Sequence record: OL960581
From: Escherichia phage vB_EcoM_SA20RB
Length of the DNA stretch: 64,000 bases
Direction: 5' to 3' (one strand)
This document shows, piece after piece, positions 5,900 to 58,219 of the stretch. The notes below the pieces were generated by a model. That model was not told where the DNA came from. It saw nothing but the letters and a program-made list of their open reading frames with translations, and did not search any database. A program made the position numbers and the translations under genes. Position 1 is the first letter of the stretch, and every line of letters starts with the position of its first letter.

Positions 5900-6085
5900 C
5901 TATTCACCTTTAGAAATTTTATCCATAACGATAGCAATTAAACCAATTAAAAATGCTACTACAAGTGAAAAAACATTTTCTGCTGTAGTCAATAATCCGC
6001 ATATAAATCCAACAAACATTGAAAAACTAAAAGCAGAAGCAGAAATTGCAATAGCAACATTTCGAATTAATTCACAACGTTTCAT
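5900..6085 (-). CDS. small membrane protein (61 aa)
   Basis: GAGGAG RBS; two hydrophobic helices; first gene behind an early promoter. Confidence 0.55.
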   Translation of the reverse strand: MKRCELIRNVAIAISASAFSFSMFVGFICGLLTTAENVFSLVVAFLIGLIAIVMDKISKGE

Positions 6086-6113
6086 TTTATTCTCCTCGGT
6101 AGTTGATAGGGTA

Positions 6114-6148
6114 ATAGTATCACAACTAAAACCCTATGTAAACAACTT
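6114..6148 (-). promoter_or_regulatory. sigma70-type early promoter (-35 TTTACA 6142..6137, -10 TACTAT 6119..6114)
   Basis: Minus: atttcacaaagTTGTTTACAtagggttttagttgtgaTACTAT; 17-bp spacer, A/T-rich upstream element. Confidence 0.65.
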
Positions 6149-6161
6149 TGTGAAATATTTA

Positions 6162-6449
6162 TTACAAAAGATTTTTAGCAATAATCTTGAGATGTGCTGC
6201 AGAAATGTGTTTAGCTTTAAACAACGCAGTTTCTTCGGCAGGAGAGATAACGATTGTAGCACCATCCTTTTTAGCAGACCACCCATCACCTAGGTAAACA
6301 GTACCTTTGATTTCTTCGCCATCAACCAAGCTAATCATTGGTTTACCTTCTCGTCCTTTATTTGCTTTAATAACTTCAGAAGTAAGAGTAGCTTCAGTAA
6401 TAGTAGAAACCGGGGTAGTTGTAGAAGTAAATTCTTTGAAAGTTTTCAT
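6162..6449 (-). CDS. ipI: internal protein I-like (95 aa)
   Basis: 95 aa, N-terminal MKTFKEFTS...ITE/A leader; located between tRNA region and 57B as in T4. Confidence 0.7.
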   Translation of the reverse strand: MKTFKEFTSTTTPVSTITEATLTSEVIKANKGREGKPMISLVDGEEIKGTVYLGDGWSAKKDGATIVISPAEETALFKAKHISAAHLKIIAKNLL

Positions 6450-6479
6450 TTTATTTTCCTAATTAATTTTGATGAGATA

Positions 6480-6514
6480 ATAGTATCACTACCTCATCAA
6501 CGTGTAAACAACTT
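6480..6514 (-). promoter_or_regulatory. sigma70-type early promoter for ipI (-35 TTTACA 6508..6503, -10 TACTAT 6485..6480)
   Basis: Minus: aatttcacaaagTTGTTTACAcgttgatgaggtagtgaTACTAT; same extended motif as other copies. Confidence 0.65.
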
Positions 6515-6521
6515 TGTGAAA

Positions 6522-7218
<697 letters not shown>

Positions 7219-7219
<1 letters not shown>

Positions 7220-7932
7220 TATAGTACCTTTAGTGTATTTTTAATTTTAGAAAAAAGTTCTTCAAGAGAACCATCGTTTGTAATTACTAAATCGCCATCA
7301 CGAATTGGCAATCCAGCTTCTGTAATATGTGTATCATTGGATTTTTGACCAGGACGAACTACATGAATTACTGTAGCACCCATCGCCCTAGCCGCATCCA
7401 TTTCATGATCTTGACGAGTATCAGGAACAATATAGTAATCATAACCTGAGTTAAATTTATCAAGATAATCTAAAGCAAATAATTTTACCCAATACATGCG
7501 GTCGAAGTTATTAACAATCAAATCCGTACCTAGGGCTTGCATCAGACGACGGACTGACCATTGATCTTCAATATTATTTATAACGTCAGCAATCTTGTTA
7601 AATGCTACGAAATTAACTGCGTCATCAAAAACAAACACACCTTTAATTGGACTTTTACTATTAAGATAGCAAAATGCTTGTCCCATAATCGTAATTACTT
7701 CTAATTTAGTCAGATTTAAATTAGTCTCACGATCATAGTCAATTCCTTCAAACTCTTTACGAGTTAAGCAAGGATAGTCAGTGTTTGCTGCAAATACGCC
7801 CCATGCATAAGCCAATGCATCCTTAATAGGACCAGCAAGTTGATATTTAACTGCAGAATAATTATTCATAATAAAATCTGCAGTAGTATCTTTTCCACTA
7901 CGCTTTACACCACTTAAAAAGATTAGTTTCAT
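7219..7932 (-). CDS. 1: deoxynucleoside monophosphate kinase
   Basis: P-loop GVKRSGKDT at N-terminus; 237 aa; position after 57A. Confidence 0.85.
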
Positions 7933-7957
7933 ATGTTTCTCCTCAAATTTAGTTAAG

Positions 7958-7983
7958 ATTATAACACATGAAACTGAAGCATT
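7958..7983 (-). promoter_or_regulatory. MotA-dependent middle promoter for gene 1
   Basis: Minus: aaTGCTTCA - 11 nt - TATAAT upstream of gene 1 RBS GAGGAG. Confidence 0.55.
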
Positions 7984-8512
7984 AAACTTCTGCTATAATT
8001 TTTCCATCTTTTTCTACTTGAAAATACGTATAAGGAATCGTTGCTGTGCATACTAAGGCTGGGTCTGAATCTTCTGTGTAGCTAAATTCTACTTCAGACA
8101 GGTCAGAAACCCAAGGCTTATAAAAATTTATTGACATCACGATTTCAGTTTTACTATTATCTAAAATGTAAAGCGTAATGTATTCAGGACCTGTTTTTTG
8201 GGCAGTATTTTCGCCTGTAAGATAGTTGCTAGTTCCTAGCATCCATTCATACATTCCTATCCACGACTTAAGTTCTTCATCAACTATAAATCTCACAATG
8301 AGTGGGTCGTACTCAAATGTAACACCTGGACGTTGTGCTCGGCCTAGTCCAAACGGCCCAGTCACGGTATCAGTAACAGGTATCCTAATTCCCGGAATAG
8401 GAACTGACTGAGCATTTAAAGTAAAAGCAGATGTAGTATTACTATGCGGTATTGATACTACAAAGTTAGTTGTATTTGCTTGGTTAAAAATTTGTTGTAG
8501 TGCTTGCGACAT
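7982..8512 (-). CDS. 3: tail completion / sheath stabiliser gp3 (176 aa)
   Basis: Start at MSQALQQIF (AGGAAT RBS); the ORF continues in-frame upstream to 8593, but that extension has no RBS. Confidence 0.8.
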   Translation of the reverse strand: MSQALQQIFNQANTTNFVVSIPHSNTTSAFTLNAQSVPIPGIRIPVTDTVTGPFGLGRAQRPGVTFEYDPLIVRFIVDEELKSWIGMYEWMLGTSNYLTGENTAQKTGPEYITLYILDNSKTEIVMSINFYKPWVSDLSEVEFSYTEDSDPALVCTATIPYTYFQVEKDGKIIAEV

Positions 8513-8618
8513 ATATTCCTCATAATGCTTCATAAATGTTAGTGGTATAATGGGTCTAAGTCCCTTCCATTCAATTCCAATTAGAACAAACAATAGAAAA
8601 GAATGGAAGATAATAGAA

Positions 8619-9443
8619 TTAGATATTTGACCAGACTTTGTTTGCAGAGAAACGTTTTCCTTTTGAAACGAACTGCTGAAGTGGCATTAACACAACGTTC
8701 GCCCAGTCTTTCGGGGCGATTTCAACAAGGCTACCCATAATATTACCAGGTATATATGCCTTAATCATTTGGTCTGCACCCCTAAATCCTTTCACTTGAC
8801 TCCAATCAATTTTTAATTTCGTTTTATTAGTAATAGTAGGTGTATTCGAATATTGCTTTAAAAGCTCTTCTAGAAATTGCTGACGAGCTTTAGGTGGAAT
8901 ATAGTGCAAGTTCAATCCGTACATTAAATTATGTTTACCTAAACCAAGGTAAATTATCAAAGGAAATTTATCCCAGTAAGGAAGAGTTTCCTTGTGTTTA
9001 GCATCATAAGCAAAAGCATATATTCGCCCCGGCTGCGGGCGAACAACTTTATGTCCTTTTACTTGCTTAATAGTTTCAGCAAACCACTTTCTGGTTTTAT
9101 TATTAATTGCTGCACCTTCATTACGAATTTTATCACGCAATGTTTGCCTGAATGAATTTATCATAAGCAGTTGTCTTTCTTGCTTATTGAGCTTATTCAT
9201 TGGTTTTGATTCAAGATTTTGAATCTTTTCGGCAGTTTTAATTCCTGAAGCATATTTTGACATTGCCGAAGTAAACGTAGAGTATTTGATTCCTCTTTCT
9301 TCAGCAAATTGCTTTCCTGTCATTCCTTTTGCTTTGGCCTTTTTGTATTCAAGACCTATCTGAATCCATTTCTTTTCGTTTAATGATTGCTTAACCTTTG
9401 GAACTTGGGGATTGCTTTCATTAATTATTTGAAAAATAGCCAT
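8619..9443 (-). CDS. 2: DNA end-protector protein gp2
   Basis: 274 aa; position and size match T4 gp2. Confidence 0.8.
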
Positions 9444-9895
9444 TATGCCCCCTTAAAGCCAAGAGCTCGTAATCCATCTTCTGTTAGAATTCTAAATTTT
9501 ATTCCACGTTTTTCAGCTAAAGCTTGCGCTGCTTTCCATTTATCAGTATTAACGGAATATGTATAAATTTCATTCATAAATCTTTTCTTCGCTGCGGTTG
9601 TTAGATGTGCCGGTTTAACTGGTGGTTGTGTTTCTTTTTTAGGCTTTATTTCAATAAAAAATTCTTGTCCAGAAGAATCTTTCATCCAAATATCCATGAA
9701 GTATCTACGTTTTTTCCCTTCTGCATTACAAAAATAAGGAATTACTGCTGTTTCACTACCCCATGCAATAATTTCTGGATTTTTATCTAACCATTCAAAA
9801 AAGAATTTTTCCCAATTTGATCTATACGTAATTTTTTTAGGGTCACCTCTATATTTTGATATATTTTTAGGAACCCATTTTCCAGAATATGCCAT
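9443..9895 (-). CDS. 4: head completion protein gp4
   Basis: 150 aa; stop/start overlap with gene 2; late promoter upstream. Confidence 0.8.
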
Positions 9896-9906
9896 TGGAT
9901 TCTCCT

Positions 9907-9929
9907 TATAAATAGATAATATATTTATA
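9907..9929. promoter_or_regulatory. divergent late promoters: TATAAATA 9907..9914 (+, gene 53) and TATAAATA 9929..9922 (-, gene 4)
   Basis: Both 8-mers in the 47-bp gap between divergent late genes. Confidence 0.7.
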
Positions 9930-9942
9930 AACAGGAGGGCCC

Positions 9943-10533
9943 ATGCTCTTTACATTTTTTGATCCGATTGAATATGCGGCCAAAACGGTGAATAAAAACG
10001 CGCCGACTATTCCTATGACAGATATTTTTAGAAACTATAAAGACTATTTCAAACGTGCTCTTGCAGGATACCGCTTACGTACTTATTATATTAAAGGTTC
10101 ACCACGCCCGGAAGAATTAGCAAATGCTATATATGGAAATCCGCAGTTGTATTGGGTTTTATTGATGTGTAATGATAATTATGATCCGTATTATGGATGG
10201 ATTACTTCGCAAGAAGCTGCTTATCAAGCATCTATACAAAAATACAAAAACGTAGGTGGAGACCAAATAGTATATCATGTGAATGAGAACGGTGAAAAAT
10301 TTTATAATTTAATATCATACGATGATAATCCATATGTTTGGTATGACAAAGGCGATAAAGCTAGAAAATATCCTCAATATGAAGGAGCACTTGCTGCGGT
10401 CGATACGTATGAAGCTGCTGTTCTTGAAAATGAAAAACTTCGTCAAATAAAAATAATAGCAAAATCAGACATCAATTCATTTATGAACGACCTTATACGT
10501 ATAATGGAGAAATCTTATGGAAATGATAAGTAA
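9943..10533 (+). CDS. 53: baseplate wedge protein gp53
   Basis: 196 aa; first gene of rightward baseplate block. Confidence 0.85.
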   Translation: MLFTFFDPIEYAAKTVNKNAPTIPMTDIFRNYKDYFKRALAGYRLRTYYIKGSPRPEELANAIYGNPQLYWVLLMCNDNYDPYYGWITSQEAAYQASIQKYKNVGGDQIVYHVNENGEKFYNLISYDDNPYVWYDKGDKARKYPQYEGALAAVDTYEAAVLENEKLRQIKIIAKSDINSFMNDLIRIMEKSYGNDK

Positions 10534-12244
10534 TAACCTTAATTGGTTTGTTGGTGTTGTTGAAGATAGAATGGACCCATTAAAATTAGGTCGTGTTCGT
10601 GTTCGTGTAGTTGGTCTGCATCCACCTCAAAGAGCCCAAGGCGATGTAATGGGTATTCCAACTGATAAATTACCATGGATGTCAGTTATTCAACCTATAA
10701 CTTCTGCAGCAATGTCTGGAATTGGAGGCTCCGTTACTGGTCCAGTAGAAGGAACTAGAGTTTATGGTCATTTTTTAGACAAATGGAAAACTAACGGAAT
10801 TGTCCTTGGCACGTATGGTGGAATAGTTCGCGAAAAGCCTAATAGACTTGAAGGATTTTCTGACCCGACTGGACAGTATCCTAGACGTCTAGGAAATGAT
10901 ACTAACGTATTAAACCAAGGCGGAGAAGTAGGATATGATTCGTCTTCTAATATTATCCAAGATAGCAATCTAGACACTGCGATAAATCCTGATGATAGAC
11001 CGCTATCAGAAATTCCAACTGATGATAATCCAAATATGTCAATGGCTGAAATGCTTCGCCGTGATGAAGGATTAAGACTAAAAGTTTATTGGGATACTGA
11101 AGGATATCCGACAATTGGCATTGGTCATCTTATCATGAAGCAGCCAGTTCGTGATATGACTCAAATTAATAAAGTTTTATCAAAACAAGTTGGTCGTGAA
11201 ATTACTGGAAATCCAGGTTCTATTACAATGGAAGAAGCGGTAACTTTATTTGAACGTGATTTAGCTGATATGCAACGTGACATTAAATCGCATTCTAAAG
11301 TTGGCCCAGTTTGGCAGGCAGTTAATCGTTCTCGTCAAATGGCATTAGAAAATATGGCATTTCAGATGGGTGTTGGCGGTGTAGCTAAATTTAACACAAT
11401 GTTAACTGCTATGTTAGCCGGAGATTGGGAAAAAGCATATAAAGCTGGTCGTGATTCATTGTGGTATCAACAAACAAAAGGCCGTGCATCCCGTGTTACC
11501 ATGATTATTCTTACGGGAAATTTGGAATCATACGGTATTGAAGTGAAAACACCGGCTAGGTCTTTGTCAGCAATGGCTGCTACTGTAGCAAAGTCTTCTG
11601 ACCCGGCTGACCCTCCTATTCCGAATGATTCAAGAATTTTATTCAAAGAACCTGTTTCTTCATATAAAGGTGAATATCCGTATGTTCACACAATGGAAAC
11701 TGAAAGCGGTCATATTCAGGAATTTGATGATACCCCGGGACAAGAACGATACAGATTAGTTCATCCGACTGGAACATATGAGGAAGTATCACCGTCAGGA
11801 AGAAGAACAAGAAAAACTGTTGATAATTTGTATGATATAACAAATGCTGATGGTAATTTTTTGGTAGCTGGCGATAAAAAGACTAACGTCGGTGGATCAG
11901 AAATTTATTACAACATGGATAATCGTCTTCACCAAATAGATGGAAGCAATACAATATTTGTACGTGGCGATGAAACTAAGACGGTTGAAGGTAATGGAAC
12001 TATCCTAGTAAAAGGTAATGTTACTATTGTAGTTGAAGGTAATGCTGACATTACAGTTAAAGGAGATGCTACCACTTTAGTTGAAGGAAATCAGACTAAT
12101 ACAGTAAATGGAAATCTTTCTTGGAAAGTTGCTGGGACAGTTGATTGGGACGTTGGCGGTGATTGGACAGAAAAAATGGCATCTATGAGTTCTATTTCAT
12201 CTGGTCAATACACAATTGATGGATCGAGGATTGACATTGGCTAA
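10517..12244 (+). CDS. 5: baseplate hub / tail lysozyme (cell-puncturing device) gp5
   Basis: 575 aa; central T4-lysozyme-like domain (LRLKVYWDTEGYPTIGIGHL) and C-terminal VxGxxxxx beta-helix repeats. Confidence 0.9.
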   Translation: MEMISNNLNWFVGVVEDRMDPLKLGRVRVRVVGLHPPQRAQGDVMGIPTDKLPWMSVIQPITSAAMSGIGGSVTGPVEGTRVYGHFLDKWKTNGIVLGTYGGIVREKPNRLEGFSDPTGQYPRRLGNDTNVLNQGGEVGYDSSSNIIQDSNLDTAINPDDRPLSEIPTDDNPNMSMAEMLRRDEGLRLKVYWDTEGYPTIGIGHLIMKQPVRDMTQINKVLSKQVGREITGNPGSITMEEAVTLFERDLADMQRDIKSHSKVGPVWQAVNRSRQMALENMAFQMGVGGVAKFNTMLTAMLAGDWEKAYKAGRDSLWYQQTKGRASRVTMIILTGNLESYGIEVKTPARSLSAMAATVAKSSDPADPPIPNDSRILFKEPVSSYKGEYPYVHTMETESGHIQEFDDTPGQERYRLVHPTGTYEEVSPSGRRTRKTVDNLYDITNADGNFLVAGDKKTNVGGSEIYYNMDNRLHQIDGSNTIFVRGDETKTVEGNGTILVKGNVTIVVEGNADITVKGDATTLVEGNQTNTVNGNLSWKVAGTVDWDVGGDWTEKMASMSSISSGQYTIDGSRIDIG

Positions 12245-12278
12245 TATACTTCCAATGAGCGCTGATTTAGGAGAATCC

Positions 12279-12773
12279 ATGGAAGGTTCTTCTATCGACG
12301 TCACCTTTACCGCTCAATTAGAAACAGGTGAAACGTTAGTATCTATAAATATAACTAGTTACGAAGAAACTTCTGGGGTTTTAGTAGAAGAAAATCGTTT
12401 ATATGGAACGTATGAATCTGTATTTGGATTTGGAAATGACGCATTGAAATATCGTTTAGATAATGAATTTAAAACTGCTGCTTCATGGGAAGACCTTCCA
12501 ACTGATTCTAATACTCAGTTATATTTATGGAAAGCTCCTCAAAACCTCCAGAAGACATTCACTTACGAAGTAACATTAATATATGACTACCAAGAACAAG
12601 GTGAATCTGGAGGTTCTGGCAGTAATTCTAGGTCATCTTCTGATACTACTGAACCGACGAATCCTCCAGCTCCAATAAGAAAAACTCTTGTTAAAAATTA
12701 CACAAAAACTATAGTTGGAAATTGGAGTCGTTGGGCTAATAAATTGAGAAGCTACGTGTATGAGAGGCCATAA
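12279..12773 (+). CDS. 5.1: gp5.1-position hypothetical protein
   Basis: Start placed at ATG 12279 with AGGAGA RBS; in-frame ATGs at 12216 and 12255 lack an RBS. Confidence 0.6.
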
Positions 12774-13067
12774 ATGTCAGGATTGAGTTATGATAAGTGT
12801 GTTACTGCCGGCCATGAAGCATGGCCTCCAACAGTTGTGAATGCTACACAAAGTAAAGTATTCACTGGAGGAATTGCTGTTCTCGTAGCAGGCGATCCAA
12901 TTACAGAACATACAGAAATTAAAAAGCCATATGAAACACATGGCGGAGTGACACAACCTAGAACTTCTAAGGTATATGTCACTGGAAAGAAAGCTGTTCA
13001 AATGGCTGATCCAATATCATGCGGTGATACTGTGGCTCAGGCATCATCTAAAGTATTCATTAAATAG
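12774..13067 (+). CDS. 5.4: PAAR-repeat spike tip protein gp5.4
   Basis: 97 aa directly after gene 5/5.1; size and position match T4 gp5.4. Confidence 0.75.
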
Positions 13068-13075
13068 GATTTAAA

Positions 13076-15058
13076 ATGGCAAATACCCCTGTAAATTATC
13101 AATTAACAAGAACAGCAAATGCTATTCCCGAGATATTCGTCGGGGGTACATTTGCTGAAATAAAACAAAACCTCATTGAATGGCTTAATGGCCAAAATGA
13201 ATTTTTGGATTATGATTTTGAAGGCTCAAGATTAAACGTTCTGTGCGACCTTTTGGCTTATAATACATTATACATTCAGCAGTTTGGTAATGCTGCCTTG
13301 TATGAAAGCTTTATGCGTACTGCTAATTTGCGTAGTTCAGTAGTTCAAGCTGCACAAGATAATGGATATTTACCTACTTCAAAATCAGCTGCTCAAACTG
13401 AAATTATGCTAACTTGTACAGATGCATTGAATAGAAATTACATTACTATTCCTCGTGGTACTCGCTTTTTAGCATATGCAAAAGATACTTCCGTTAATCC
13501 TTACAACTTTGTATCTACTGAAGATGTTATTGCTATTCGTGATAAAAATAACCAATATTTTCCACGTTTAAAATTGGCCCAGGGACGTATAGTAAGAACT
13601 GAAATCATTTATGATAAATTAACACCTATTATCATTTATGACAAAAATATAGATAGAAACCAAGTTAAATTATACGTTGATGGAGCAGAATGGATTAACT
13701 GGACAAGAAAGTCAATGGTTCATGCTGGTTCTACATCAACAATTTACTACATGCGTGAAACTATTGATGGAAATACCGAGTTTTATTTTGGTGAAGGCGA
13801 GATTTCTGTTAATGCGGCAGAAGGAGCATTGACTGCTAATTATATTGGAGGTCTTAAACCTACCCAGAACTCTACGATTGTTATTGAGTACATCAGTACT
13901 AACGGTGCAGATGCGAATGGCGCAGTCGGATTTTCATATGCAGATACATTAACAAATATAACTGTCATCAATATTAATGAAAATCCAAACGATGACCCAG
14001 ATTTTGTTGGGGCAGATGGCGGCGGTGATCCAGAAGATATTGAGCGTATTCGCGAATTGGGTACTATTAAACGCGAAACCCAGCAACGCTGCGTAACTGC
14101 GACTGACTATGATACATTCGTTTCAGAGAGATTTGGTTCTATTATTCAAGCAGTTCAGACGTTCACTGATTCTACTAAACCTGGTTATGCATTTATTGCT
14201 GCTAAACCTAAATCAGGTCTGTATTTAACTACCGTACAGCGCGAAGATATTAAAAATTATCTCAAAGACTATAATTTAGCTCCTATTACACCATCAATTA
14301 TTTCTCCTAATTATCTTTTTATTAAGACTAATTTAAAAGTCACATATGCTTTAAATAAGCTGCAAGAATCCGAACAGTGGCTCGAAGGTCAAATAATTGA
14401 TAAAATTGATCGTTATTATACAGAAGATGTAGAAATTTTTAACTCATCTTTCGCTAAATCTAAGATGTTGACATATGTAGATGATGCAGATCATTCTATC
14501 ATTGGTTCATCAGCGACAATTCAAATTGTTCGTGAAGTACAAAACTTCTATAAAACGCCTGAAGCGGGTATTAAATACAATAATCAAATAAAAGATCGTT
14601 CTATGGAATCTAATACGTTTTCATTTAATTCTGGACGAAAGGTTGTAAATCCTGATACTGGTTTAGAAGAAGATGTATTATATGACGTCCGCATAGTATC
14701 AACAGACCGAGATTCTAAAGGAATTGGTAAAGTTATTATTGGTCCATTTGCTTCTGGCGATGTTACAGAAAATGAAAACATTCAGCCGTATACAGGCAAC
14801 GATTTTAACAAATTAGCAAATTCTGATGGACGCGACAAATACTATGTTATCGGTGAAATAAATTATCCAGCTGACATGATTTATTGGAATATCGCTAAAA
14901 TTAATTTAACATCTGAAAAATTTGAAGTTCAGACTATTGAATTATATTCTGACCCAACCGATGATGTTATCTTTACTCGTGATGGTTCACTGATTGTATT
15001 TGAAAATGACTTACGTCCACAATACTTAACTATCGATTTGGAGCCTATATCACAATGA
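13076..15058 (+). CDS. 6: baseplate wedge protein gp6
   Basis: 660 aa; synteny. Confidence 0.85.
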   Translation: MANTPVNYQLTRTANAIPEIFVGGTFAEIKQNLIEWLNGQNEFLDYDFEGSRLNVLCDLLAYNTLYIQQFGNAALYESFMRTANLRSSVVQAAQDNGYLPTSKSAAQTEIMLTCTDALNRNYITIPRGTRFLAYAKDTSVNPYNFVSTEDVIAIRDKNNQYFPRLKLAQGRIVRTEIIYDKLTPIIIYDKNIDRNQVKLYVDGAEWINWTRKSMVHAGSTSTIYYMRETIDGNTEFYFGEGEISVNAAEGALTANYIGGLKPTQNSTIVIEYISTNGADANGAVGFSYADTLTNITVININENPNDDPDFVGADGGGDPEDIERIRELGTIKRETQQRCVTATDYDTFVSERFGSIIQAVQTFTDSTKPGYAFIAAKPKSGLYLTTVQREDIKNYLKDYNLAPITPSIISPNYLFIKTNLKVTYALNKLQESEQWLEGQIIDKIDRYYTEDVEIFNSSFAKSKMLTYVDDADHSIIGSSATIQIVREVQNFYKTPEAGIKYNNQIKDRSMESNTFSFNSGRKVVNPDTGLEEDVLYDVRIVSTDRDSKGIGKVIIGPFASGDVTENENIQPYTGNDFNKLANSDGRDKYYVIGEINYPADMIYWNIAKINLTSEKFEVQTIELYSDPTDDVIFTRDGSLIVFENDLRPQYLTIDLEPISQ

Positions 15059-36940: not shown

Positions 36941-38506
36941 ATGACTATCAAAACTAAAGCTGAACTTTTGAACAAATGGAAGCCATTACTGGAAGGTGAA
37001 GGTTTACCGGAAATTGCTAATAGCAAACAAGCGATTATCGCTAAAATCTTTGAAAACCAGGAAAAAGATTTCCAGACAGCTCCAGAGTACAAAGACGAAA
37101 AAATCGCTCAGGCGTTCGGTTCTTTCTTAACAGAAGCTGAAATCGGTGGTGACCACGGTTACAATGCTACTAACATCGCTGCAGGTCAGACTTCTGGCGC
37201 AGTAACTCAGATTGGCCCAGCTGTTATGGGTATGGTACGTCGTGCTATTCCTAACCTGATTGCTTTCGATATTTGCGGTGTTCAGCCGATGAATAGCCCG
37301 ACCGGTCAGGTATTCGCACTGCGTGCTGTATACGGTAAAGACCCAATTGCTGCCGGCGCTAAAGAAGCATTCCACCCAATGTATGGTCCAGATGCAATGT
37401 TCTCTGGTCAGGGTGCTGCTAAGAAATTCCCGGCTCTGGCTGCTAGCACAGAAACCACAGTAGGTGATATCTATACTCACTTCTTCCAGGACACTGGTAC
37501 TGTGTATCTGCAGGCTTCTGCTCAAGTAACAATTAGTGCAAGCGCAACTGATGCAGCTAAATTAGATGCTGAAATTAAGAAACAAATGGAAGCTGGTGCA
37601 TTGGTAGAAATCGCTGAAGGTATGGCTACTTCTATCGCTGAACTCCAGGAAGGTTTCAACGGTTCTACCGATAACCCATGGAATGAAATGGGCTTCCGTA
37701 TCGATAAACAAGTTATCGAAGCTAAATCTCGCCAGCTGAAAGCTGCTTACTCTATCGAATTAGCACAAGACCTCCGCGCTGTTCACGGTATGGATGCTGA
37801 TGCTGAACTGTCTGGTATTCTGGCTACCGAAATCATGCTGGAAATCAACCGCGAAGTTGTTGATTGGATTAACTACTCAGCTCAGGTTGGTAAATCTGGT
37901 ATGACCCTGACTCCAGGTTCTAAAGCTGGTGTATTTGACTTCCAGGATCCGATTGATATTCGTGGTGCTCGCTGGGCGGGTGAATCCTTTAAAGCTCTGT
38001 TGTTCCAGATTGACAAAGAAGCAGTTGAAATTGCTCGTCAGACCGGTCGTGGTGAAGGTAACTTCATTATCGCTTCCCGTAACGTAGTTAACGTTCTGGC
38101 TTCAGTTGATACTGGCATTTCTTATGCTGCACAGGGTCTGGCTACCGGCTTTAACACTGATACTACCAAGTCAGTATTTGCTGGTGTTCTGGGTGGTAAA
38201 TACCGTGTATATATCGACCAGTATGCTAAACAGGATTATTTCACTGTAGGTTATAAAGGTCCGAACGAAATGGATGCTGGTATTTACTATGCTCCATATG
38301 TAGCTCTGACTCCGCTGCGTGGTTCCGATCCGAAGAACTTCCAACCAGTAATGGGATTCAAAACTCGTTACGGTATCGGTATCAACCCATTTGCAGAATC
38401 CGCTGCTCAGGCTCCGGCTTCTCGCATCCAGAGCGGTATGCCTTCTATTCTGAATAGCCTTGGTAAAAACGCTTACTTCCGCCGTGTATATGTTAAAGGT
38501 ATCTAA
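36941..38506 (+). CDS. 23: major capsid protein gp23
   Basis: 521 aa; N-terminus MTIKTKAELLNKWKPLLEGEG matches T4 gp23 as I recall it; strongly biased codon usage. Confidence 0.92.
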   Translation: MTIKTKAELLNKWKPLLEGEGLPEIANSKQAIIAKIFENQEKDFQTAPEYKDEKIAQAFGSFLTEAEIGGDHGYNATNIAAGQTSGAVTQIGPAVMGMVRRAIPNLIAFDICGVQPMNSPTGQVFALRAVYGKDPIAAGAKEAFHPMYGPDAMFSGQGAAKKFPALAASTETTVGDIYTHFFQDTGTVYLQASAQVTISASATDAAKLDAEIKKQMEAGALVEIAEGMATSIAELQEGFNGSTDNPWNEMGFRIDKQVIEAKSRQLKAAYSIELAQDLRAVHGMDADAELSGILATEIMLEINREVVDWINYSAQVGKSGMTLTPGSKAGVFDFQDPIDIRGARWAGESFKALLFQIDKEAVEIARQTGRGEGNFIIASRNVVNVLASVDTGISYAAQGLATGFNTDTTKSVFAGVLGGKYRVYIDQYAKQDYFTVGYKGPNEMDAGIYYAPYVALTPLRGSDPKNFQPVMGFKTRYGIGINPFAESAAQAPASRIQSGMPSILNSLGKNAYFRRVYVKGI

Positions 38507-38520
38507 TCTTTGACGATTTA

Positions 38521-38550
38521 AGGGACCTTCGGGTCCCTTTAGTTGTTTTT
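38521..38550 (+). terminator. rho-independent terminator after gene 23
   Basis: GGGACC-UUCG-GGUCCC then UUAGUUGUUUUU. Confidence 0.7.
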
Positions 38551-38554
38551 ATGG

Positions 38555-38562
38555 TATAAATA
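38555..38562 (+). promoter_or_regulatory. late promoter TATAAATA for gene 24
   Basis: Exact 8-mer 28 nt upstream of ATG 38590. Confidence 0.6.
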
Positions 38563-38589
38563 AATCATATAAACCAAAAGGAAAGCGCA

Positions 38590-39873
38590 ATGGCTAAAAT
38601 CAACGAACTTCTGCGCGAATCAACCACAACGAATAGCAACTCAATCGGTCGCCCAAATCTCGTTGCTTTGACTCGCGCTACCACTAAATTAATATATTCT
38701 GACATTGTAGCAACGCAAAGAACTAATCAACCTGTTGCTGCTTTTTATGGTATCAAATACCTTAACCCAGACAATGAATTTACATTTAAAACTGGTGCTA
38801 CTTACGCTGGCGAAGCTGGATATGTAGACCGAGAACAAATCACAGAATTAACAGAAGAGTCTAAATTAACTCTCAATAAAGGCGATTTATTCAAATATAA
38901 TAATATCGTTTATAAAGTATTAGAAGATACACCATTTGCTACCATTGAAGAAAGCGATTTAGAACTAGCTCTTCAGATTGCAATTGTTCTTTTAAAGGTT
39001 CGTCTATTTTCTGACGCAGCGTCAACGAGCAAATTTGAAAGCTCTGATAGCGAAATTGCTGATGCTAGATTCCAGATTAATAAATGGCAAACCGCAGTTA
39101 AATCTCGTAAACTTAAAACTGGCATTACAGTTGAATTAGCACAAGATTTAGAAGCAAATGGATTCGATGCTCCTAATTTCTTGGAAGATTTGCTTGCAAC
39201 TGAAATGGCGGATGAAATCAATAAAGATATTCTACAGTCTTTGATTACAGTGTCAAAACGCTATAAAGTTACAGGAATTACTGATACTGGATTCATTGAT
39301 TTGAGTTATGCATCTGCACCTGAAGCTGGTCGTTCATTATACCGAATGGTGTGTGAAATGGTTTCGCATATCCAAAAAGAATCAACTTATACTGCAACGT
39401 TCTGTGTTGCTTCAGCTCGTGCCGCTGCGATTCTTGCTGCATCAGGTTGGTTAAAACATAAACCAGAAGATGATAAATATCTTTCACAAAATGCCTATGG
39501 GTTCTTAGCTAATGGTTTACCGCTTTATTGCGATACTAACAGCCCATTAGATTATGTAATCGTTGGCGTAGTAGAAAATATTGGTGAAAAAGAAATTGTC
39601 GGATCAATTTTCTATGCTCCGTATACAGAAGGTCTTGACTTAGATGACCCTGAACATGTAGGTGCATTTAAAGTTGTAGTTGATCCAGAAAGTTTGCAGC
39701 CATCTATCGGTTTATTGGTTAGATATGCTTTATCTGCAAATCCTTACACTGTAGCAAAAGACGAAAAAGAAGCAAGAATAATTGATGGTGGAGACATGGA
39801 TAAAATGGCGGGTCGTTCAGATTTGTCTGTTTTATTAGGTGTTAAGCTACCAAAAATTATCGTCGATGAATAA
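38590..39873 (+). CDS. 24: capsid vertex protein gp24
   Basis: 427 aa; paralogous in length/position to gp23 family. Confidence 0.88.
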   Translation: MAKINELLRESTTTNSNSIGRPNLVALTRATTKLIYSDIVATQRTNQPVAAFYGIKYLNPDNEFTFKTGATYAGEAGYVDREQITELTEESKLTLNKGDLFKYNNIVYKVLEDTPFATIEESDLELALQIAIVLLKVRLFSDAASTSKFESSDSEIADARFQINKWQTAVKSRKLKTGITVELAQDLEANGFDAPNFLEDLLATEMADEINKDILQSLITVSKRYKVTGITDTGFIDLSYASAPEAGRSLYRMVCEMVSHIQKESTYTATFCVASARAAAILAASGWLKHKPEDDKYLSQNAYGFLANGLPLYCDTNSPLDYVIVGVVENIGEKEIVGSIFYAPYTEGLDLDDPEHVGAFKVVVDPESLQPSIGLLVRYALSANPYTVAKDEKEARIIDGGDMDKMAGRSDLSVLLGVKLPKIIVDE

Positions 39874-41485: not shown

Positions 41486-42904
41486 TTATGGATAGGTATA
41501 GATGATACCAGTTTCTAAAGCAGTTTTATGAATGATGTATCCATTACGTGATTCTTGAACATCAACTTCTGGATAGTCTTTCATCATCTTCTGAAGAGTG
41601 TAACGATGCAAGTAGTATTTACTATCTGGATCTTCAGTTTTCCAATCTTTACCTTCTTCAGTCATTTTTTGGATTTCATCCATAACCCACCAACCGCACC
41701 AGATATAAGCTGAAGTACGATGTGGAAGAGGATGAACATAAGGTAATTCACCTTCTGGTTCCGGAGCAACTTTATCAGTTACCTGAACTTGACCTTCTGC
41801 TGTGATAGTTTTGCTATCATAATCAGTGGCAGTAACAGTTGCAGTAACTTCAATAGTTTGACTTCCAATAGATGATGTATCAACGGTGTATACATTAGTT
41901 GACCCTTCTACAGGAGAAGAATCTTTCTTCCATGAATACGTAATTTGTGCTTCTTCCGGAGCATCCGTAACATTAGCAGTAAATGTAGCCGAAGCATCTT
42001 GCTGAACATTAATAGAAGGAGGAGTCAATGTAACCTGTGGATTCATTGTCTTCTTATTAACTGTCAATGATACTTCATTAGAAGTAACTTCCTTTTCATT
42101 ATAATTTTCTGCAGTTACTTGGGCTACGCATTTAATTCTTTTTACTCCACTTGTAGTTGGAGTATAGTTAAATGTAGAGTTAGTTTCTCCACCAACTTGT
42201 GAATCATCTACATACCACTGATACGTGGCAGACGCTCCATCAGGTTGAGAAGCTAAGGCAGCAGTAAATTGAACCGGGGTTCCAATTACTCCAGCAGCAG
42301 GACTAGCAGGAGTTACTGCCAAGGTAGTTGTCTGCGTCTTTTTATTAACAGTCAGTGACACTTCATTAGAAGTAACTTCCTTTGTATCATAATCTGCCGC
42401 GGTTACTTGAGCTACACACTTAATTGTTTTAACTCCGCTTGTGGAAGGAGTGTAATTGAATGTAGCAGAAGTTGCTTCGCCTACAGGAGAACCGTCAACG
42501 TACCATTGATACGTAGCAGTTGCGCCAGATGGCTGTGAAGCTAAGGCAGCAGTAAATTCAACGGCTGTTCCGATTACTCCTTCTGGAGGACTATTAGGAG
42601 TTACAGCTAAGGTAGTTGTTTGTGTCTTATTTTGAACTGTGATAGTTATAGTAGCTTCTGCTGTTTCAGCATCAGTATCTGGAACTGGGTTTGTTGCAAC
42701 TACTTTAATAGTTTTTTGACCGGCAGGTCCTTTTAGTACATAACTAAAAGTTGCTTCAGTTCCATCTTGTGGAACATCGTCTACAGTCCAAGCATATGTA
42801 ATAGGTCCATCTCCAGTTTGACCACTGGGTGTAGCAGTAAACTGCTGAGTCTGATCTATAACTCCAGTAGGTGTTTTAGGAGTTATATCAACTGTAAAAG
42901 CCAT
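41486..42904 (-). CDS. hoc: outer capsid decoration protein Hoc, enlarged (472 aa)
   Basis: Ig-like repeats; aa 95-190 and 191-286 are about 80 percent identical tandem copies; C-terminal capsid-binding region. Confidence 0.8.
   Translation of the reverse strand: MAFTVDITPKTPTGVIDQTQQFTATPSGQTGDGPITYAWTVDDVPQDGTEATFSYVLKGPAGQKTIKVVATNPVPDTDAETAEATITITVQNKTQTTTLAVTPNSPPEGVIGTAVEFTAALASQPSGATATYQWYVDGSPVGEATSATFNYTPSTSGVKTIKCVAQVTAADYDTKEVTSNEVSLTVNKKTQTTTLAVTPASPAAGVIGTPVQFTAALASQPDGASATYQWYVDDSQVGGETNSTFNYTPTTSGVKRIKCVAQVTAENYNEKEVTSNEVSLTVNKKTMNPQVTLTPPSINVQQDASATFTANVTDAPEEAQITYSWKKDSSPVEGSTNVYTVDTSSIGSQTIEVTATVTATDYDSKTITAEGQVQVTDKVAPEPEGELPYVHPLPHRTSAYIWCGWWVMDEIQKMTEEGKDWKTEDPDSKYYLHRYTLQKMMKDYPEVDVQESRNGYIIHKTALETGIIYTYP
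42047..42622 (-). repeat. 288-bp tandem duplication inside hoc (one Ig-like domain each)
   Basis: Two adjacent 288-bp units (42047..42334, 42335..42622) clearly alignable by eye. Confidence 0.75.
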
Positions 42905-42913: not shown

Positions 42914-43594
42914 TTATTTTAATGTTACGAAAGAAGAATTGCGTGTTTCACGAATTAGAACTGATCCGTCGCGATTAATGTAATAAATTAAGCTAAATAA
43001 AGTTTGGTGTGCCAACGCATGTTCAAAACTAGTTGGGTGAGATTTCCAATCCGGAGTTTCAGCAATCCACTGGTAAATCCACCAAGGAACAGTGCAGAAT
43101 CCTGGATTTTTTCCAATTAGCTGAAGATTCGGACTAAAGTTTTCCGGAAGAGTAAATACAGACGGCTTTTCAGATTCAATAATCTCAGCTACAGCCTGTT
43201 CGAATTTTTCTTCAACAAAAGGAGTATCTTCAATCAAAACATCGGTATTTTCAGGAATTTTATCCGTTTCTACTACTTCAATTTTAATGTCAGATTTAAC
43301 CGGAGAATCAATCAGAAGTGCTGCTTCTGGATTGACTTCTTCATCGTCATATTTTAACCCCTCTGCAGCATCAGCAGCATTGATTAAGTCTTTAATAGAT
43401 AACCCATCAGTCTCTGGCATAGGTTCACTAGCGAGCTTCTGGAGGGCTTCTTCAATATCAACAACGATATTATCAAAAGATTTATTCTTTTTGACCTTTA
43501 TACCAAACTGTTCAGCATATTCAGCTAATTTAGCCTTAGCTTCTTTATTATCATCAAGAGCCTTCAGCTCTGCAATATAATCTTTATCTATCAT
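42914..43594 (-). CDS. inh: inhibitor of prohead protease
   Basis: 226 aa; position after hoc. Confidence 0.8.
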   Translation of the reverse strand: MIDKDYIAELKALDDNKEAKAKLAEYAEQFGIKVKKNKSFDNIVVDIEEALQKLASEPMPETDGLSIKDLINAADAAEGLKYDDEEVNPEAALLIDSPVKSDIKIEVVETDKIPENTDVLIEDTPFVEEKFEQAVAEIIESEKPSVFTLPENFSPNLQLIGKNPGFCTVPWWIYQWIAETPDWKSHPTSFEHALAHQTLFSLIYYINRDGSVLIRETRNSSFVTLK

Positions 43595-43607
43595 AATATT
43601 TCCTCAG

Positions 43608-43615
43608 TATAAATA
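43608..43615 (+). promoter_or_regulatory. late promoter TATAAATA for uvsW
   Basis: Exact 8-mer 30 nt upstream of ATG 43645. Confidence 0.6.
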
Positions 43616-43644
43616 TAGATATATTTATTACATGGTATTTAGAC

Positions 43645-45156
43645 ATGACTGACATTAAAGTACATTTTTATGATTTTAGTCACGTGAGAATTGATTGTGA
43701 AGAAAGTACATTTCATGAACTCCGTGATTTCTTTAGCTTTGAAGCTGATGGGTATCGTTTTAATCCGAAGTACAAATATGGCCACTGGGATGGACGAATC
43801 CGTCTTTTAGATTATAATCGTCTTCTTCCATTCGGCTTAGTCGGACAAATTAAAAAGTTCTGCGATAACTTTGGCTATAAAGCTTGGATTGACCCACAGA
43901 TTAACGAAAAAGAAGAATTATCAAGAAAAGATTTTGATGAATGGCTTTCTAAGTTAGAAATCTATTCAGGAAATAAAAGAATTGAACCACACTGGTATCA
44001 AAAAGATGCAGTGTTCGAAGGATTAGTTAATCGTCGTAGAATTCTTAATCTTCCAACATCCGCAGGTAAATCTTTAATTCAAGCTTTGCTTGCACGTTAT
44101 TATTTGGAAAATTATGAAGGTAAAATTCTTATCATTGTTCCAACAACTGCTCTGACAACTCAGATGGCTGATGACTTTGTTGACTATCGTTTATTCAGTC
44201 ATGCAATGATAAAGAAAATCGGCGGTGGAGCATCAAAAGATGATAAATATAAAAATGATGCACCGGTAATTGTTGGTACATGGCAAACTGTAGTAAAACA
44301 ACCAAAAGAATGGTTCTCACAGTTTGGAATGATGATGAATGATGAATGCCATCTTGCCACAGGAAAAAGTATTTCATCTATCATATCAGGTTTAAATAAC
44401 TGCATGTTCAAATTCGGTTTGTCTGGTTCATTACGTGATGGCAAAGCCAATATCATGCAGTATGTTGGAATGTTTGGTGAAATATTTAAGCCAGTAACGA
44501 CTTCTAAATTAATGGAAGATGGACAAGTAACTGAGCTAAAAATTAATAGTATTTTTCTTCGTTATCCTGATGAGTTCACTACTAAATTAAAGGGAAAAAC
44601 TTACCAAGAAGAAATAAAAATTATTACTGGGCTCAGTAAAAGAAATAAATGGATCGCTAAATTAGCTATTAAACTTGCGCAAAAAGATGAAAACGCTTTT
44701 GTCATGTTTAAGCATGTATCACATGGTAAAGCTATTTTCGATTTAATTAAAAATGAATACGATAAAGTTTATTACGTATCAGGGGAAGTTGATACCGAAA
44801 CACGCAACGTAATGAAAACCCTAGCTGAAAACGGTAAAGGAATAATTATAGTAGCTAGTTATGGTGTATTTTCTACTGGTATTTCAGTTAAAAATCTGCA
44901 TCACGTTGTTTTAGCACACGGTGTTAAATCTAAAATTATTGTATTGCAAACAATAGGTCGCGTATTACGTAAGCATGGTTCTAAAACAATCGCAACGGTC
45001 TGGGACCTCATAGATGATTGCGGTGTTAAGCCAAAATCTGCTAATACGAAAAAGAAATATGTTCATTTGAACTATCTTTTAAAACACGGCATTGATCGTA
45101 TTCAGCGATACGCAGATGAAAAATTTAATTACGTAATGAAAACAGTTAATTTATAA
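43645..45156 (+). CDS. uvsW: DNA/RNA helicase UvsW
   Basis: 503 aa; Walker A PTSAGKS, DECH box (MMNDECHLATG). Confidence 0.88.
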   Translation: MTDIKVHFYDFSHVRIDCEESTFHELRDFFSFEADGYRFNPKYKYGHWDGRIRLLDYNRLLPFGLVGQIKKFCDNFGYKAWIDPQINEKEELSRKDFDEWLSKLEIYSGNKRIEPHWYQKDAVFEGLVNRRRILNLPTSAGKSLIQALLARYYLENYEGKILIIVPTTALTTQMADDFVDYRLFSHAMIKKIGGGASKDDKYKNDAPVIVGTWQTVVKQPKEWFSQFGMMMNDECHLATGKSISSIISGLNNCMFKFGLSGSLRDGKANIMQYVGMFGEIFKPVTTSKLMEDGQVTELKINSIFLRYPDEFTTKLKGKTYQEEIKIITGLSKRNKWIAKLAIKLAQKDENAFVMFKHVSHGKAIFDLIKNEYDKVYYVSGEVDTETRNVMKTLAENGKGIIIVASYGVFSTGISVKNLHHVVLAHGVKSKIIVLQTIGRVLRKHGSKTIATVWDLIDDCGVKPKSANTKKKYVHLNYLLKHGIDRIQRYADEKFNYVMKTVNL

Positions 45157-54032: not shown

Positions 54033-54067
54033 ACTATAACACAACATGAGGGACTTGTAAACTACAT
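54033..54067 (-). promoter_or_regulatory. sigma70-type early promoter (-35 TTTACA 54061..54056, -10 TATAGT 54038..54033)
   Basis: Minus: gtagTTTACAagtccctcatgttgtgtTATAGT, 17-bp spacer. Confidence 0.55.
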
Positions 54068-56119
54068 CTTGAACTTTTTAGACATTCCGTTGATGTTAAC
54101 CAAAGAAGCTAAGATTTGAGAAACTTCGTTTTCCTCTTCTTTTGATTCTTCTACAAGGAATTGGTTAAATCCAGTCATTGGACGAACTTCACCAGTTTCC
54201 ATCAGATGATCGCCATCATATACCGATTCTTCTAATTGTTCAGAAGGAGGAACGATTGTGCCTTCGATTAGATACTTGTTATAAGCAGTTTCTTTCATCA
54301 TGTACGTGCTTACTTTATTAATCTTCAACAAAATTCCACGCGGTAAAATAACTTCAGCTTCTGATGGAAATCCTGATAAATGACCTGGAACGATAACTTT
54401 AATTCGCTCAGCTCCTTTTATTACCATACCTACGCTAGTTTCAGCATCTTCATTAGCATATGCAGAATGACTACCCATATGCATTAAATCTTCAGCATCA
54501 ACGGAACCTTCTCCTTCACCAGAAAATACTGCACCGGAATCATCTAGAGCCATATAGTTTTTACCATGCTCACCGAAGATATTTGGTTTAAGCGATGTTG
54601 ATACGAAGTTCTTGAAATAGAACATTTTATTTTCAATATTATGACGTAAAGTTTTAAAGGTAACTTCTTGTCCACGGTAAAGTGTAGTTCCTGGAGGAAG
54701 AACTGATCCTTTGGCAAAGGCAGAATCCATTGTCTCGATGTGTTTAATAGCTCGTTCCATGTATTCTTCACGGGTAGAATCTGGTTTACCCAAGAGGAAC
54801 GAGTTCATTTCAACATATGAATCTGCACAATAATCTTCAATTACATCAGACTCAGCCTGAGTCAGTCCTTTTGGAGTTACTTCGGTGCTTGCGTATTCAT
54901 ATGCCTGAGCAGCAGATTCATTAATCAATTTATAAATGCTATTCATGACAAATTGAATAATAGCTACTTTTTCGTCTGGCGTGGCTTTAGAACCTTTAAC
55001 TAAATCATTGATAATTTTCTTAATAACATCAAAGCTATTAGAAATATTAATGTCAGCGAGATCGCTTAAAATTTTATCAGTTTTATAATCAAAAAATTCT
55101 TTATTCTTTAAATATTCTTTAGAACCTTGATATGTTATATCGCTCTGCAGCTTGATAGATGGATCACGTAAACGTGCATGGGCCAATGCAATATGATTTC
55201 GGAAGCTTTCTAGTTCATAATCGTTAGATTTAAAACGAGAAGCACTTCTCATACCACCGATAGCTCCTTTGCCGAAGTTTGAACCAATCTGAATAACACC
55301 AGAGTTCATTGGTCCTTCTGCTTTATATACCGGAACTTTAGATTCAAACTCTTGATATTTCTTGGCAGCGAAGCTATCACCCTGAAGTGAAGCATCGACA
55401 GTAGAATATTGAGCTTGTGCTGCTAATCGACGACTAATTTTAGTTTTCTGAATAACAGCTTGATCCGTGCGCTTATCATTTTCTAAAGCAATAGAAGCAG
55501 CAACAGCAACAGCTTTAGGAACAGCATTACCTGTTTTAACATCTACATAAACATCACCAACCTTTGATTCAACTTTTGTGAATAACTCAGTTGAAATAGG
55601 AGGTACACCTGGAATGTCTTCTAAATTGGCATTTTTACGGTAAACCATAATATATGCATACTTTTTATCATAATCCCAAATTTCCTTTAAAAGAACATAT
55701 CGACCTGCTCCTTTAGTACGTACTAAACGGTCAGCAATAACTTGCATTTGACGAGCAGCGCCATTTGTTTTACTTTTTAGTACGCGGAATAGGCATGCGT
55801 CAATTTTATACTGTTTCATTGTTTGAAGAGCAGTATCAAAAACCGCATTAATGACACCAATTGGATTTCCACCCAAGTTTTTAAGTTTAACGAGCGATAG
55901 TTTCTCATTGACACCTATCATTACGATATGCATCATTTTATCGCCTGGCTTAACGTTTTTATTTGTATCACCGCCAGAGGTGTATGTACAAAATCTAAAT
56001 CCAGGAAGCACACTTTCTTCGCCGGCTTGAATAGCAAAAATTTGAGGTATTTTATGCTTAGGATTTAAGTTAACAACCGGCGCCGAAGCGCCGTCAAATA
56101 ATTCTGTAATAAGTTCCAT
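54062..56119 (-). CDS. alt: Alt-like ADP-ribosyltransferase, copy A (685 aa)
   Basis: Closest in length to T4 Alt; C-terminal ...FKNFVSTSL... and ...EAEVILPRG... fit the R-S-ExE ART signature. Confidence 0.8.
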   Translation of the reverse strand: MELITELFDGASAPVVNLNPKHKIPQIFAIQAGEESVLPGFRFCTYTSGGDTNKNVKPGDKMMHIVMIGVNEKLSLVKLKNLGGNPIGVINAVFDTALQTMKQYKIDACLFRVLKSKTNGAARQMQVIADRLVRTKGAGRYVLLKEIWDYDKKYAYIMVYRKNANLEDIPGVPPISTELFTKVESKVGDVYVDVKTGNAVPKAVAVAASIALENDKRTDQAVIQKTKISRRLAAQAQYSTVDASLQGDSFAAKKYQEFESKVPVYKAEGPMNSGVIQIGSNFGKGAIGGMRSASRFKSNDYELESFRNHIALAHARLRDPSIKLQSDITYQGSKEYLKNKEFFDYKTDKILSDLADINISNSFDVIKKIINDLVKGSKATPDEKVAIIQFVMNSIYKLINESAAQAYEYASTEVTPKGLTQAESDVIEDYCADSYVEMNSFLLGKPDSTREEYMERAIKHIETMDSAFAKGSVLPPGTTLYRGQEVTFKTLRHNIENKMFYFKNFVSTSLKPNIFGEHGKNYMALDDSGAVFSGEGEGSVDAEDLMHMGSHSAYANEDAETSVGMVIKGAERIKVIVPGHLSGFPSEAEVILPRGILLKINKVSTYMMKETAYNKYLIEGTIVPPSEQLEESVYDGDHLMETGEVRPMTGFNQFLVEESKEEENEVSQILASLVNINGMSKKFKM

Positions 56120-56122: not shown

Positions 56123-58219
56123 TTATCCTTGAACGAACTTGTAAGGCATGTTTGCAATATCTATGCAAGATGCAATAATTCCAAGAGATGATTCTACTTT
56201 TTGTTTAACATTTGATGAAACAAATGATGCAAAGTCAACTCTGTCTTCTATTTCAATATCACCTGTCATTGCAACTACTTCACCAGTTTCCATTAGACGG
56301 TCACCGTCATAAATTACTGATTCGGTGAGTTCTTCCGTAGTCATAACTTCAGCTTGAATGAGTTTTGTATTATTAGATGTTGTTCCGTCATTATTAGAAG
56401 CATCAGTTATTTTATTAACTTTGACCATCAATCCGCGTGGTAGAATTACTTCAGCTTCTGTTGCTATTCCTAGACTTCCTGGATATACAACATTAACTTT
56501 ATGAGCTCCATCAATTGCCCATCCTATTTGAACTTTAACGTATTCAGGATTTTCTTTATACGCTCTTATTTCGTTTGGATTAATAGTTATTCCTTCTTCA
56601 TTTTTATCAACTGTCAATTCATTACGAGCTTCTGGTTCTAAAAGACCAATACCAGCATGTGTAATTCCAAAACGTCCAAAAATGATAGGAGTTAAAGAAG
56701 TAGATACAAAATTTCTGAAATAGAACACTTTATTTTTAACTAGTGCTTCGTATATAGGAGCAGTCATGCTTTGAGCACGATAAACTGTAATGCCTTCTGG
56801 TATACGATCACCATTTTCAAAAGCTGAATCTAAGTTATTTATAGCAGATTCAATTTCTTTTTCACTCATTACATCATATCGTTCTGGATTGTAACGACCC
56901 AAAAGAAGATTATTGATGTCAGTATATCCTGAACCACAATACTCTCTAATGCCGCGCTTTTGTGATGGAGTATATTTAGAACCATCACGGGCAATAGTAA
57001 TATCAATCATTGGACCTGCACCAATTCCAGAAAAGCTATAAATCATTCTTTTAAGGAATTTAGTTTTTGCTGCGTTCCAGGAATTTTTAGTTATTTCTTC
57101 CCAGACTTCATCTGGCTGCCCTTTACGAGTTTTATTATGTTTATCAAGCCAATTATCTTTATATTCTTCAAAGAATTGATTAACAGCTGCTGCGTATTTC
57201 TCTAAACATTTTATTGAAGTAGTTGGTTCATTTTTAATCGCATTAAGAATTACATCTTTAATTTTTTCAGAAACTTCATTAACCTCACTTTTTGAAAAGA
57301 ATTTATAATCATAGTGAAGTTCATTTGCAGTTCCTTCAGCAATAATTTTTGCTGTCTTTGTTTTAGAAGCTAATGAATTAATTCCAAGCTTCATTTCTTC
57401 TGCTTCGGGAATTAAAGGAGCGGTAGCAGGTTTATTGAAATTAGCTGCGGTAGATTCATACTTCTGGAATAATTCACTTTCAAATCTAGAAGATTCTAAT
57501 GATTGACTTTGCGCAATTGCTCTACGGGAAATTTTAACTTTAACGATTACAGCTTGGTCAGAACGTTTATCATTTTCTTGCGCAATAGATGCAGCAATTG
57601 CCTCATTTTTAGTTACTTGAGCTCCAGTATCTTTATTGATATAAACATCACCAACCTTCGATTCAACTTTAGTAAAGAGCTCGGTACTAATTTCCGGAAC
57701 TCCTGGAATGTCTTCTAGTGATACATTTTTGCGATGTATAAGAATATATGCATACTTTTTATCGTAATCCCAAAGTTCCTTAAGAAGGACGTATCTGCCG
57801 CCTGAGCGACTACGGATAAGTCTATCAGCAATAAGTTGAATTTGACGAGCTTGACCAGCAGTTTTAGACTTAAGAATACGGAGCATGCAGGCATCAATTT
57901 TATACTGACGCATCGTCTGCATCGCAACAGTAAAAACTGAATTGATGTAATTAATTGGGCTTGGACCGAGACCTTTTAATTTAGCAATTGAACCTTTAGC
58001 AGTTAATGTAAAAGGAACAATATGCATCATTTTATCGCCCATTTTTAAATCGCGATTAGTATCACCTCCAGATGTATAGGTACATAAACGAAAGCCTGGT
58101 TGTTCAATTGCGTCATCAACATGAACTGAAAAAATTTGCGGTATTTTCTTCTTTGGATTTAAGTTTGTAATCGGAAGAGTAGTATCTTCGTCAAATAATT
58201 CTGTAATGAGTTCCATCAT
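56123..58219 (-). CDS. Alt-like ADP-ribosyltransferase, copy B (698 aa)
   Basis: Paralog of copy A (conserved N-terminal ~230 aa and C-terminal STS / EAE motifs, divergent middle); late promoter upstream. Confidence 0.75.
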   Translation of the reverse strand: MMELITELFDEDTTLPITNLNPKKKIPQIFSVHVDDAIEQPGFRLCTYTSGGDTNRDLKMGDKMMHIVPFTLTAKGSIAKLKGLGPSPINYINSVFTVAMQTMRQYKIDACMLRILKSKTAGQARQIQLIADRLIRSRSGGRYVLLKELWDYDKKYAYILIHRKNVSLEDIPGVPEISTELFTKVESKVGDVYINKDTGAQVTKNEAIAASIAQENDKRSDQAVIVKVKISRRAIAQSQSLESSRFESELFQKYESTAANFNKPATAPLIPEAEEMKLGINSLASKTKTAKIIAEGTANELHYDYKFFSKSEVNEVSEKIKDVILNAIKNEPTTSIKCLEKYAAAVNQFFEEYKDNWLDKHNKTRKGQPDEVWEEITKNSWNAAKTKFLKRMIYSFSGIGAGPMIDITIARDGSKYTPSQKRGIREYCGSGYTDINNLLLGRYNPERYDVMSEKEIESAINNLDSAFENGDRIPEGITVYRAQSMTAPIYEALVKNKVFYFRNFVSTSLTPIIFGRFGITHAGIGLLEPEARNELTVDKNEEGITINPNEIRAYKENPEYVKVQIGWAIDGAHKVNVVYPGSLGIATEAEVILPRGLMVKVNKITDASNNDGTTSNNTKLIQAEVMTTEELTESVIYDGDRLMETGEVVAMTGDIEIEDRVDFASFVSSNVKQKVESSLGIIASCIDIANMPYKFVQG

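Follow-up and report, generated by a model that had tools for sequence, protein, structure and literature searches.

Empty segC, segD and segE slots beside an intact, non-T4 segB allele in a T4-like segment of Escherichia phage vB_EcoM_SA20RB

Genes 23 and 24 of phage T4 are separated by segD, and in Escherichia phage vB_EcoM_SA20RB (OL960581) the same two capsid genes are separated by only 83 bp. This raises the question of whether the slots that hold seg genes in T4 were never invaded in this phage or were emptied, and whether another nuclease gene stands in their place. That seg genes are distributed patchily among T-even phages, and that this distribution is linked to marker exclusion, has been standard textbook material since the late 1990s. 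The original prediction proposed that segD, segE and segC are missing from the 23-24, inh-uvsW and 5.1-5.4 junctions and that segB is retained in the tRNA operon. The T4 positions given there for all three genes agreed with the T4 RefSeq annotation, and Edgell, Gibb and Belfort 2010 give the same seg insertion sites in their Table 1 (PMC2988022).

We analyzed a stretch of 64,000 nucleotides of this record, referred to here as the window. The window was placed by megablast against 50,697 phage records, together with its ORF table and its eight tRNAs. It was collinear over all 64 kb with about 67.3-131.3 kb of T4 (NC_000866), from nudE to rIII, at 90-96% DNA identity (blastn), and about 500 Tequatrovirus records matched it at 95-99% identity (megablast). 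T4 gene order combined with high nucleotide identity to T4 and its close relatives assigns the window, on sequence, to Tequatrovirus (T4-like, Straboviridae). The best matches among the 50,697 records were about 98% identical and differed by segment, with no exact match by megablast; best relatives that vary from segment to segment are normal mosaicism for Tequatrovirus. Alignment to T4 had been proposed as the check on the empty slots, and the blastn alignment was interrupted exactly at the three seg junctions, where T4 has a surplus of 558 bp (5.1-5.4), 790 bp (23-24) and 636 bp (inh-uvsW). This comparison of slots is one of presence and absence, to which a test against chance is not applicable. 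T4 has segC (with 5.3), segD, segE, e.2 and e.7, all of which the window lacks; particular to the window in this comparison are a 157-aa ORF (2910-3383), a second alt paralogue of full length, an extra Hoc Ig-like domain and a segB allele with 83% protein identity to that of T4.

The junction between genes 23 and 24 is made up of the following features.

36941-38506, plus strand: gene 23, major capsid protein, 521 aa, 98.7% identical to T4 gp23
38507-38589, plus strand: 23-24 intergenic region and empty segD slot, 83 bp, with a terminator hairpin, a late promoter and the gene 24 ribosome-binding site
38590-39873, plus strand: gene 24, capsid vertex protein, 427 aa, 99.5% identical to T4 gp24

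The gap had been described as 83 bp holding a terminator and a late promoter, and the ORF table, the hairpin and the promoter box all agreed with that description. A terminator-like hairpin, AAGGGACC-TTCG-GGTCCCTT, is followed by the T-run TAGTTGTTTTT at 38520-38549 (stem-loop 38520-38539), a TATAAATA late-promoter box lies at 38555-38562, and a GGA Shine-Dalgarno sequence precedes the ATG of gene 24. These 83 bp form a junction of the ordinary kind between two late capsid genes, with a terminator, a late promoter and a ribosome-binding site. In T4, segD (106561-107232, minus strand; RefSeq) is inserted in antisense between the homologous terminator and late promoter, at a point corresponding to about 38551-38554 of the window, and the sequence adjoining the slot is 95-99% identical between the window and T4 in 200-bp bins. 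Each of the best 40 of about 504 matches to the 23-24 region aligned as one uninterrupted piece of 3000-3001 bases, and these 40 relatives therefore have the same short gap. T2, RB14, ime09 and Shfl2, which are T-even phages lacking segE, segD and segC, share with the window the T4 gene order and the short 23-24 junction, and RB14, ime09 and Shfl2 match the window's 23-24 region as one contiguous piece.

The second slot has no intergenic sequence in the window.

12771-12776, plus strand: junction of the 5.1 stop codon (TAA, 12771-12773) and the 5.4 start codon (ATG at 12774), the empty segC slot

Genes 5.1 and 5.4 abut with zero intergenic bases, just as predicted, and in the T4 RefSeq annotation segC (80196-80618) and 5.3 (80621-80791) lie between them. 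In RB55 (species Tequatrovirus T4) segC and 5.3 form a single 597-bp ORF of 198 aa (381-977 of locus L004), so that a single endonuclease cassette explains the 5.1-5.4 difference with its full 558 bp. Judged from this reading frame, "5.3" is the C-terminal part of SegC. The T4 reference splits segC (140 aa) from 5.3 (56 aa) across 14196-14791 of locus L001 (T4 80196-80791). Compared with the T4 reference, RB55 and several further records of the T4 species contain an additional base, and their segC is one ORF of 198 aa.

The third slot lies between inh and uvsW, both taken from the ORF table.

42914-43594, minus strand: inh
43595-43644, no strand assigned: inh-uvsW intergenic region and empty segE slot, 50 bp, with a TATAAATA box at 43608
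43645-45156, plus strand: uvsW
43645-43785, plus strand: uvsW 5' end, the T2-type allele of segE-less phages, about 81% identical to T4 compared with about 96% downstream

The 50 bp claimed for this gap was confirmed by the gene ends at 43594 and 43645. T4 carries segE between inh and uvsW at 112057-112674 (RefSeq), a 618-bp ORF that follows the same promoter-bearing sequence. The sequence shared with T4 extends to TTATTAC, after which uvsW follows directly in the window where T4 has segE. Thus segE is missing at the exact T4 insertion point and the flanks are intact, which is the configuration of an uninvaded (HEG-minus) allele.

The start of uvsW was also unlike that of T4. Identity between the window and T4 fell to 81.5% over the initial 200 bp of uvsW and returned to about 96% beyond it (200-bp bins), and alignment placed dense, mostly synonymous differences across the first 130 bp or so. 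The T4-type uvsW 5' allele was found in 158 records at at least 95% identity and segE in 159, with nearly the same organism breakdown, a link that consists of matching record counts and organism mix and not of a record-by-record cross-tabulation. Such agreement is expected for a homing target or co-conversion tract at the uvsW 5' end, and this stretch is likely the SegE target or co-conversion tract. The window-type allele was found in 335 records, including T2 at 99.3%. By these counts and organism mix, a distinct target-region allele accompanies the absence of segE, and it is this allele that the window appears to carry. SegE reportedly cleaves RB30 DNA at the uvsW 5' end and is less efficient on T4 DNA (attributed to Kadyrov et al. 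1997). By analogy, we infer that SegE would cleave the uvsW 5' allele of the window.

The window was then searched for remnants of the missing genes and for substitutes. With T4 queries that included SegB, tblastn detected no remnant of SegC, SegD, SegE or gp5.3 in any of the six frames of the window, and apart from one weak hit only the segB locus was matched. The weak hit paired residues 23-82 of T4 SegE with 2243-2410 on the plus strand (E = 0.002 against the window) and was rejected as a chance match, having 23% identity, no GIY or YIG motifs and a position antisense to a conserved 58-aa ORF (phrog_5461). Together with their precise absence at the T4 insertion points, the lack of segC and segD remnants in the window is what is expected of uninvaded alleles. 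The 157-aa ORF (2910-3383, minus strand) lies in a non-T4 stretch (2904-3425) between e.8 and the small stable RNA/tRNA region. It was considered as an alternative homing endonuclease and rejected, with no Pfam match, a match to phrog_2280 (unknown function) and presence in about 394 relatives. No GIY-YIG or HNH protein was found by Pfam and PHROGs in the T4-unaligned stretches (2131-2404, 2904-3425, 5713-5896, the alt region and the extra Hoc domain), and the other window-specific or poorly conserved ORFs gave no GIY-YIG or HNH match in Pfam scans. Re-reading of the three junctions revealed no seg-like or other nuclease ORF in them, and an Rfam scan of the whole window returned the eight tRNAs only. 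Within the 64-kb window segB is therefore the sole homing endonuclease gene. The different set of selfish elements in the original prediction is borne out, within the 64-kb window, only as a smaller subset.

Several other differences from T4 were recorded along the window. T4 gene e.2 is missing at the 163-192 junction, and at 2131-2404 an unrelated ORF of 58 aa (2158-2334, minus strand; phrog_5461, function unknown) takes the place of T4 e.7. A local divergent patch at 5713-5896, inside the trna.3 homologue downstream of the tRNA cluster, did not align to T4 by blastn. Hoc (41486-42904, minus strand) is 472 aa long compared with 376 aa in T4, with one added Ig/PKD-like domain of about 96 aa on the N-terminal side. 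Two full-length genes for Alt-type ADP-ribosyltransferases lie in tandem at 54062-56119 and 56123-58219 (both minus strand; 685 and 698 aa, 41% mutual identity). The downstream gene is the intact form of a gene left in T4 as the relics alt.-1 and alt.-2, which are 95-98% identical to residues 1-56 and 62-116 of the downstream Alt of the window; two Alt genes are annotated in many relatives as well.

The one seg gene that is present lies in the tRNA cluster.

3772-5130, minus strand: tRNA cluster with eight tRNAs as in T4 (Arg, Ile/Met-CAT, Thr, Ser, Pro, Gly, Leu, Gln)
3772-3848, minus strand: tRNA-Arg, member of the cluster
3852-4517, minus strand: segB, GIY-YIG homing endonuclease gene, intact, 221 aa, between tRNA-Arg and tRNA-Ile(CAU)
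4559-4630, minus strand: tRNA-Ile/Met-CAT, member of the cluster

Retention of segB in the tRNA operon was thus correctly predicted, though the allele is not that of T4. The product matched the Pfam GIY-YIG domain PF01541 over residues 3-71 (25.6 bits against a cut-off of 22.6) and also matched PHROG homing endonuclease families. Both it and T4 SegB are 221 aa long and align without gaps at 83% protein identity (84% at the DNA level), and in T4 segB likewise lies between tRNA-Arg and tRNA-Ile. The N-terminal GIY-YIG domain, the position between tRNA-Arg and tRNA-Ile and full-length orthology to T4 SegB all identify the product as SegB. No frameshift or loss of catalytic residues was seen in the full-length, ungapped alignment of the window gene with T4 SegB. 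Of their 221 residues the two proteins differ at 37, most of them within residues 95-180, which are the linker and DNA-binding part; residues 1-94, the catalytic N-terminus, are near-identical to T4, and the final 40 residues are almost unchanged. Alleles at least 95% identical to the window segB were found in 55 records, and the T4-like allele, at 80-90%, in 127 records.

The closest allele in DNA was that of Yersinia phage fPS-2 (LR215722; 99.7%), which shares with the window the surroundings of segB, including a homologue of the 157-aa ORF (g131c) and the tRNA cluster. Against window positions 1-14000 fPS-2 matched in five pieces, and a homing endonuclease (g146) is annotated beside its gene 5, so that its 5.1-5.4 slot is apparently occupied, unlike that of the window.

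T4 SegB homes and cleaves at T-psi-C motif sites of tRNA genes, and GGTTCRANTCC is the core motif it recognizes (PMC2330249). This core was present in six of the eight window tRNA genes, with no exact match in the Arg and Gly genes; the same tRNA genes carry it in T4, except that tRNA-Ile has no exact match there. T2L has no segB and its tRNA set differs (PMC2330249), whereas the window has segB and the eight tRNAs of T4. The tRNA-Asn gene, which holds the preferred SegB site in T2L (PMC2330249), is not in the tRNA set of the window. The specificity of the window SegB may differ from that of T4 SegB, given where the substitutions fall. That the allele has shifted its target preference among tRNA genes is a more specific proposal, which we consider doubtful.

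To place the empty slots in the genus, T4-type seg genes were counted against about 504 Tequatrovirus records that are at least 90% identical across the 23-24 region. T4-type segD was found in 55 of these, segE in 159 and segC in 38, counts in which many of the seg-bearing records are T4 laboratory strains. T4-type segD is thus missing from about 89% of the records, segE from about 68% and segC from about 92%. The majority of records show the empty state, T4 has already been called the outlier in the literature, and the absence of segC, segD and segE together with the presence of segB is a correct but already well known observation. The prediction that seg content would serve strain typing draws on established knowledge (PMC2988022, PMC2330249), but the empty state, at about 68-92% of records, is not distinctive. 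Since most Tequatrovirus records lack these seg genes, empty slots alone carry little typing power.

Taken together, the window very probably carries uninvaded alleles at the segC, segD and segE loci, which in T4 hold free-standing GIY-YIG homing endonuclease genes, and an invaded segB locus in its tRNA cluster. The main alternative is that segC, segD and segE were present earlier in this lineage and were then removed by precise deletion. The T4 segC cassette (558 bp extra) is bordered by ATAAAT on both sides, a repeat that could have served a deletion through microhomology just as readily as it could mark an insertion, and a cycle of gain, decay and loss is expected of homing endonuclease genes. 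However, the window retains no remnant of any of the three genes, the empty junctions are common to hundreds of relatives at high identity, including T2, and the uvsW 5' allele is the common segE-less type where a recent segE deletion would leave the T4-type allele, and we regard such a history as highly improbable. That the empty slots are an artefact of assembly or mosaicism, produced by the collapse or omission of seg genes, could be suspected from the lack of an exactly matching record and from best matches of about 98% that change with the segment, but Tequatrovirus genomes are normally mosaic at the 95-98% level, the junctions look functional (terminator and promoter intact, 5.1 and 5.4 abutting) and the same junctions recur in many independently sequenced genomes, leaving this explanation next to no likelihood.

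In published work, the sites that Seg enzymes cleave in T2 correspond to the markers that are excluded. If the window phage infected a cell together with a seg-bearing phage such as T4, SegE and SegC would be expected to cut its genome near the empty slots, and the SegE cut would fall in the uvsW 5' end. Repair on the T4 template would then bring in the seg gene with its flanking markers, and the local markers of the window phage would be excluded. In turn, SegB of the window phage would cut the tRNA region of segB-less relatives, which would spread its own tRNA cluster. Cleavage and exclusion are here inferred from what has been published on the Seg enzymes of T4. SegD is said to lack homing (attributed to Sokolov et al. 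2018), and if this is true the empty 23-24 slot need not predict exclusion. The use of seg slots for predicting marker exclusion is thus upheld in part, being published for Seg proteins (PMC2988022, PMC2330249) and plausible for segE and segC, but the 23-24 slot need not follow.

The finding has little significance beyond annotation. Annotators can take the short junctions at 23-24, inh-uvsW and 5.1-5.4 as genuine rather than as assembly errors. For crosses with T4, the empty slots would predict the regions that are over-written. The activity of T6 SegB is known, and segB has recently been linked to the amplification of anti-defence loci (PMC13096335); the segB of this phage is flagged here as a non-T4 allele of that gene. 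If its target preference had indeed shifted, exclusion or tRNA amplification in the lineage of the window phage would behave unlike that driven by T4 or T6 SegB.
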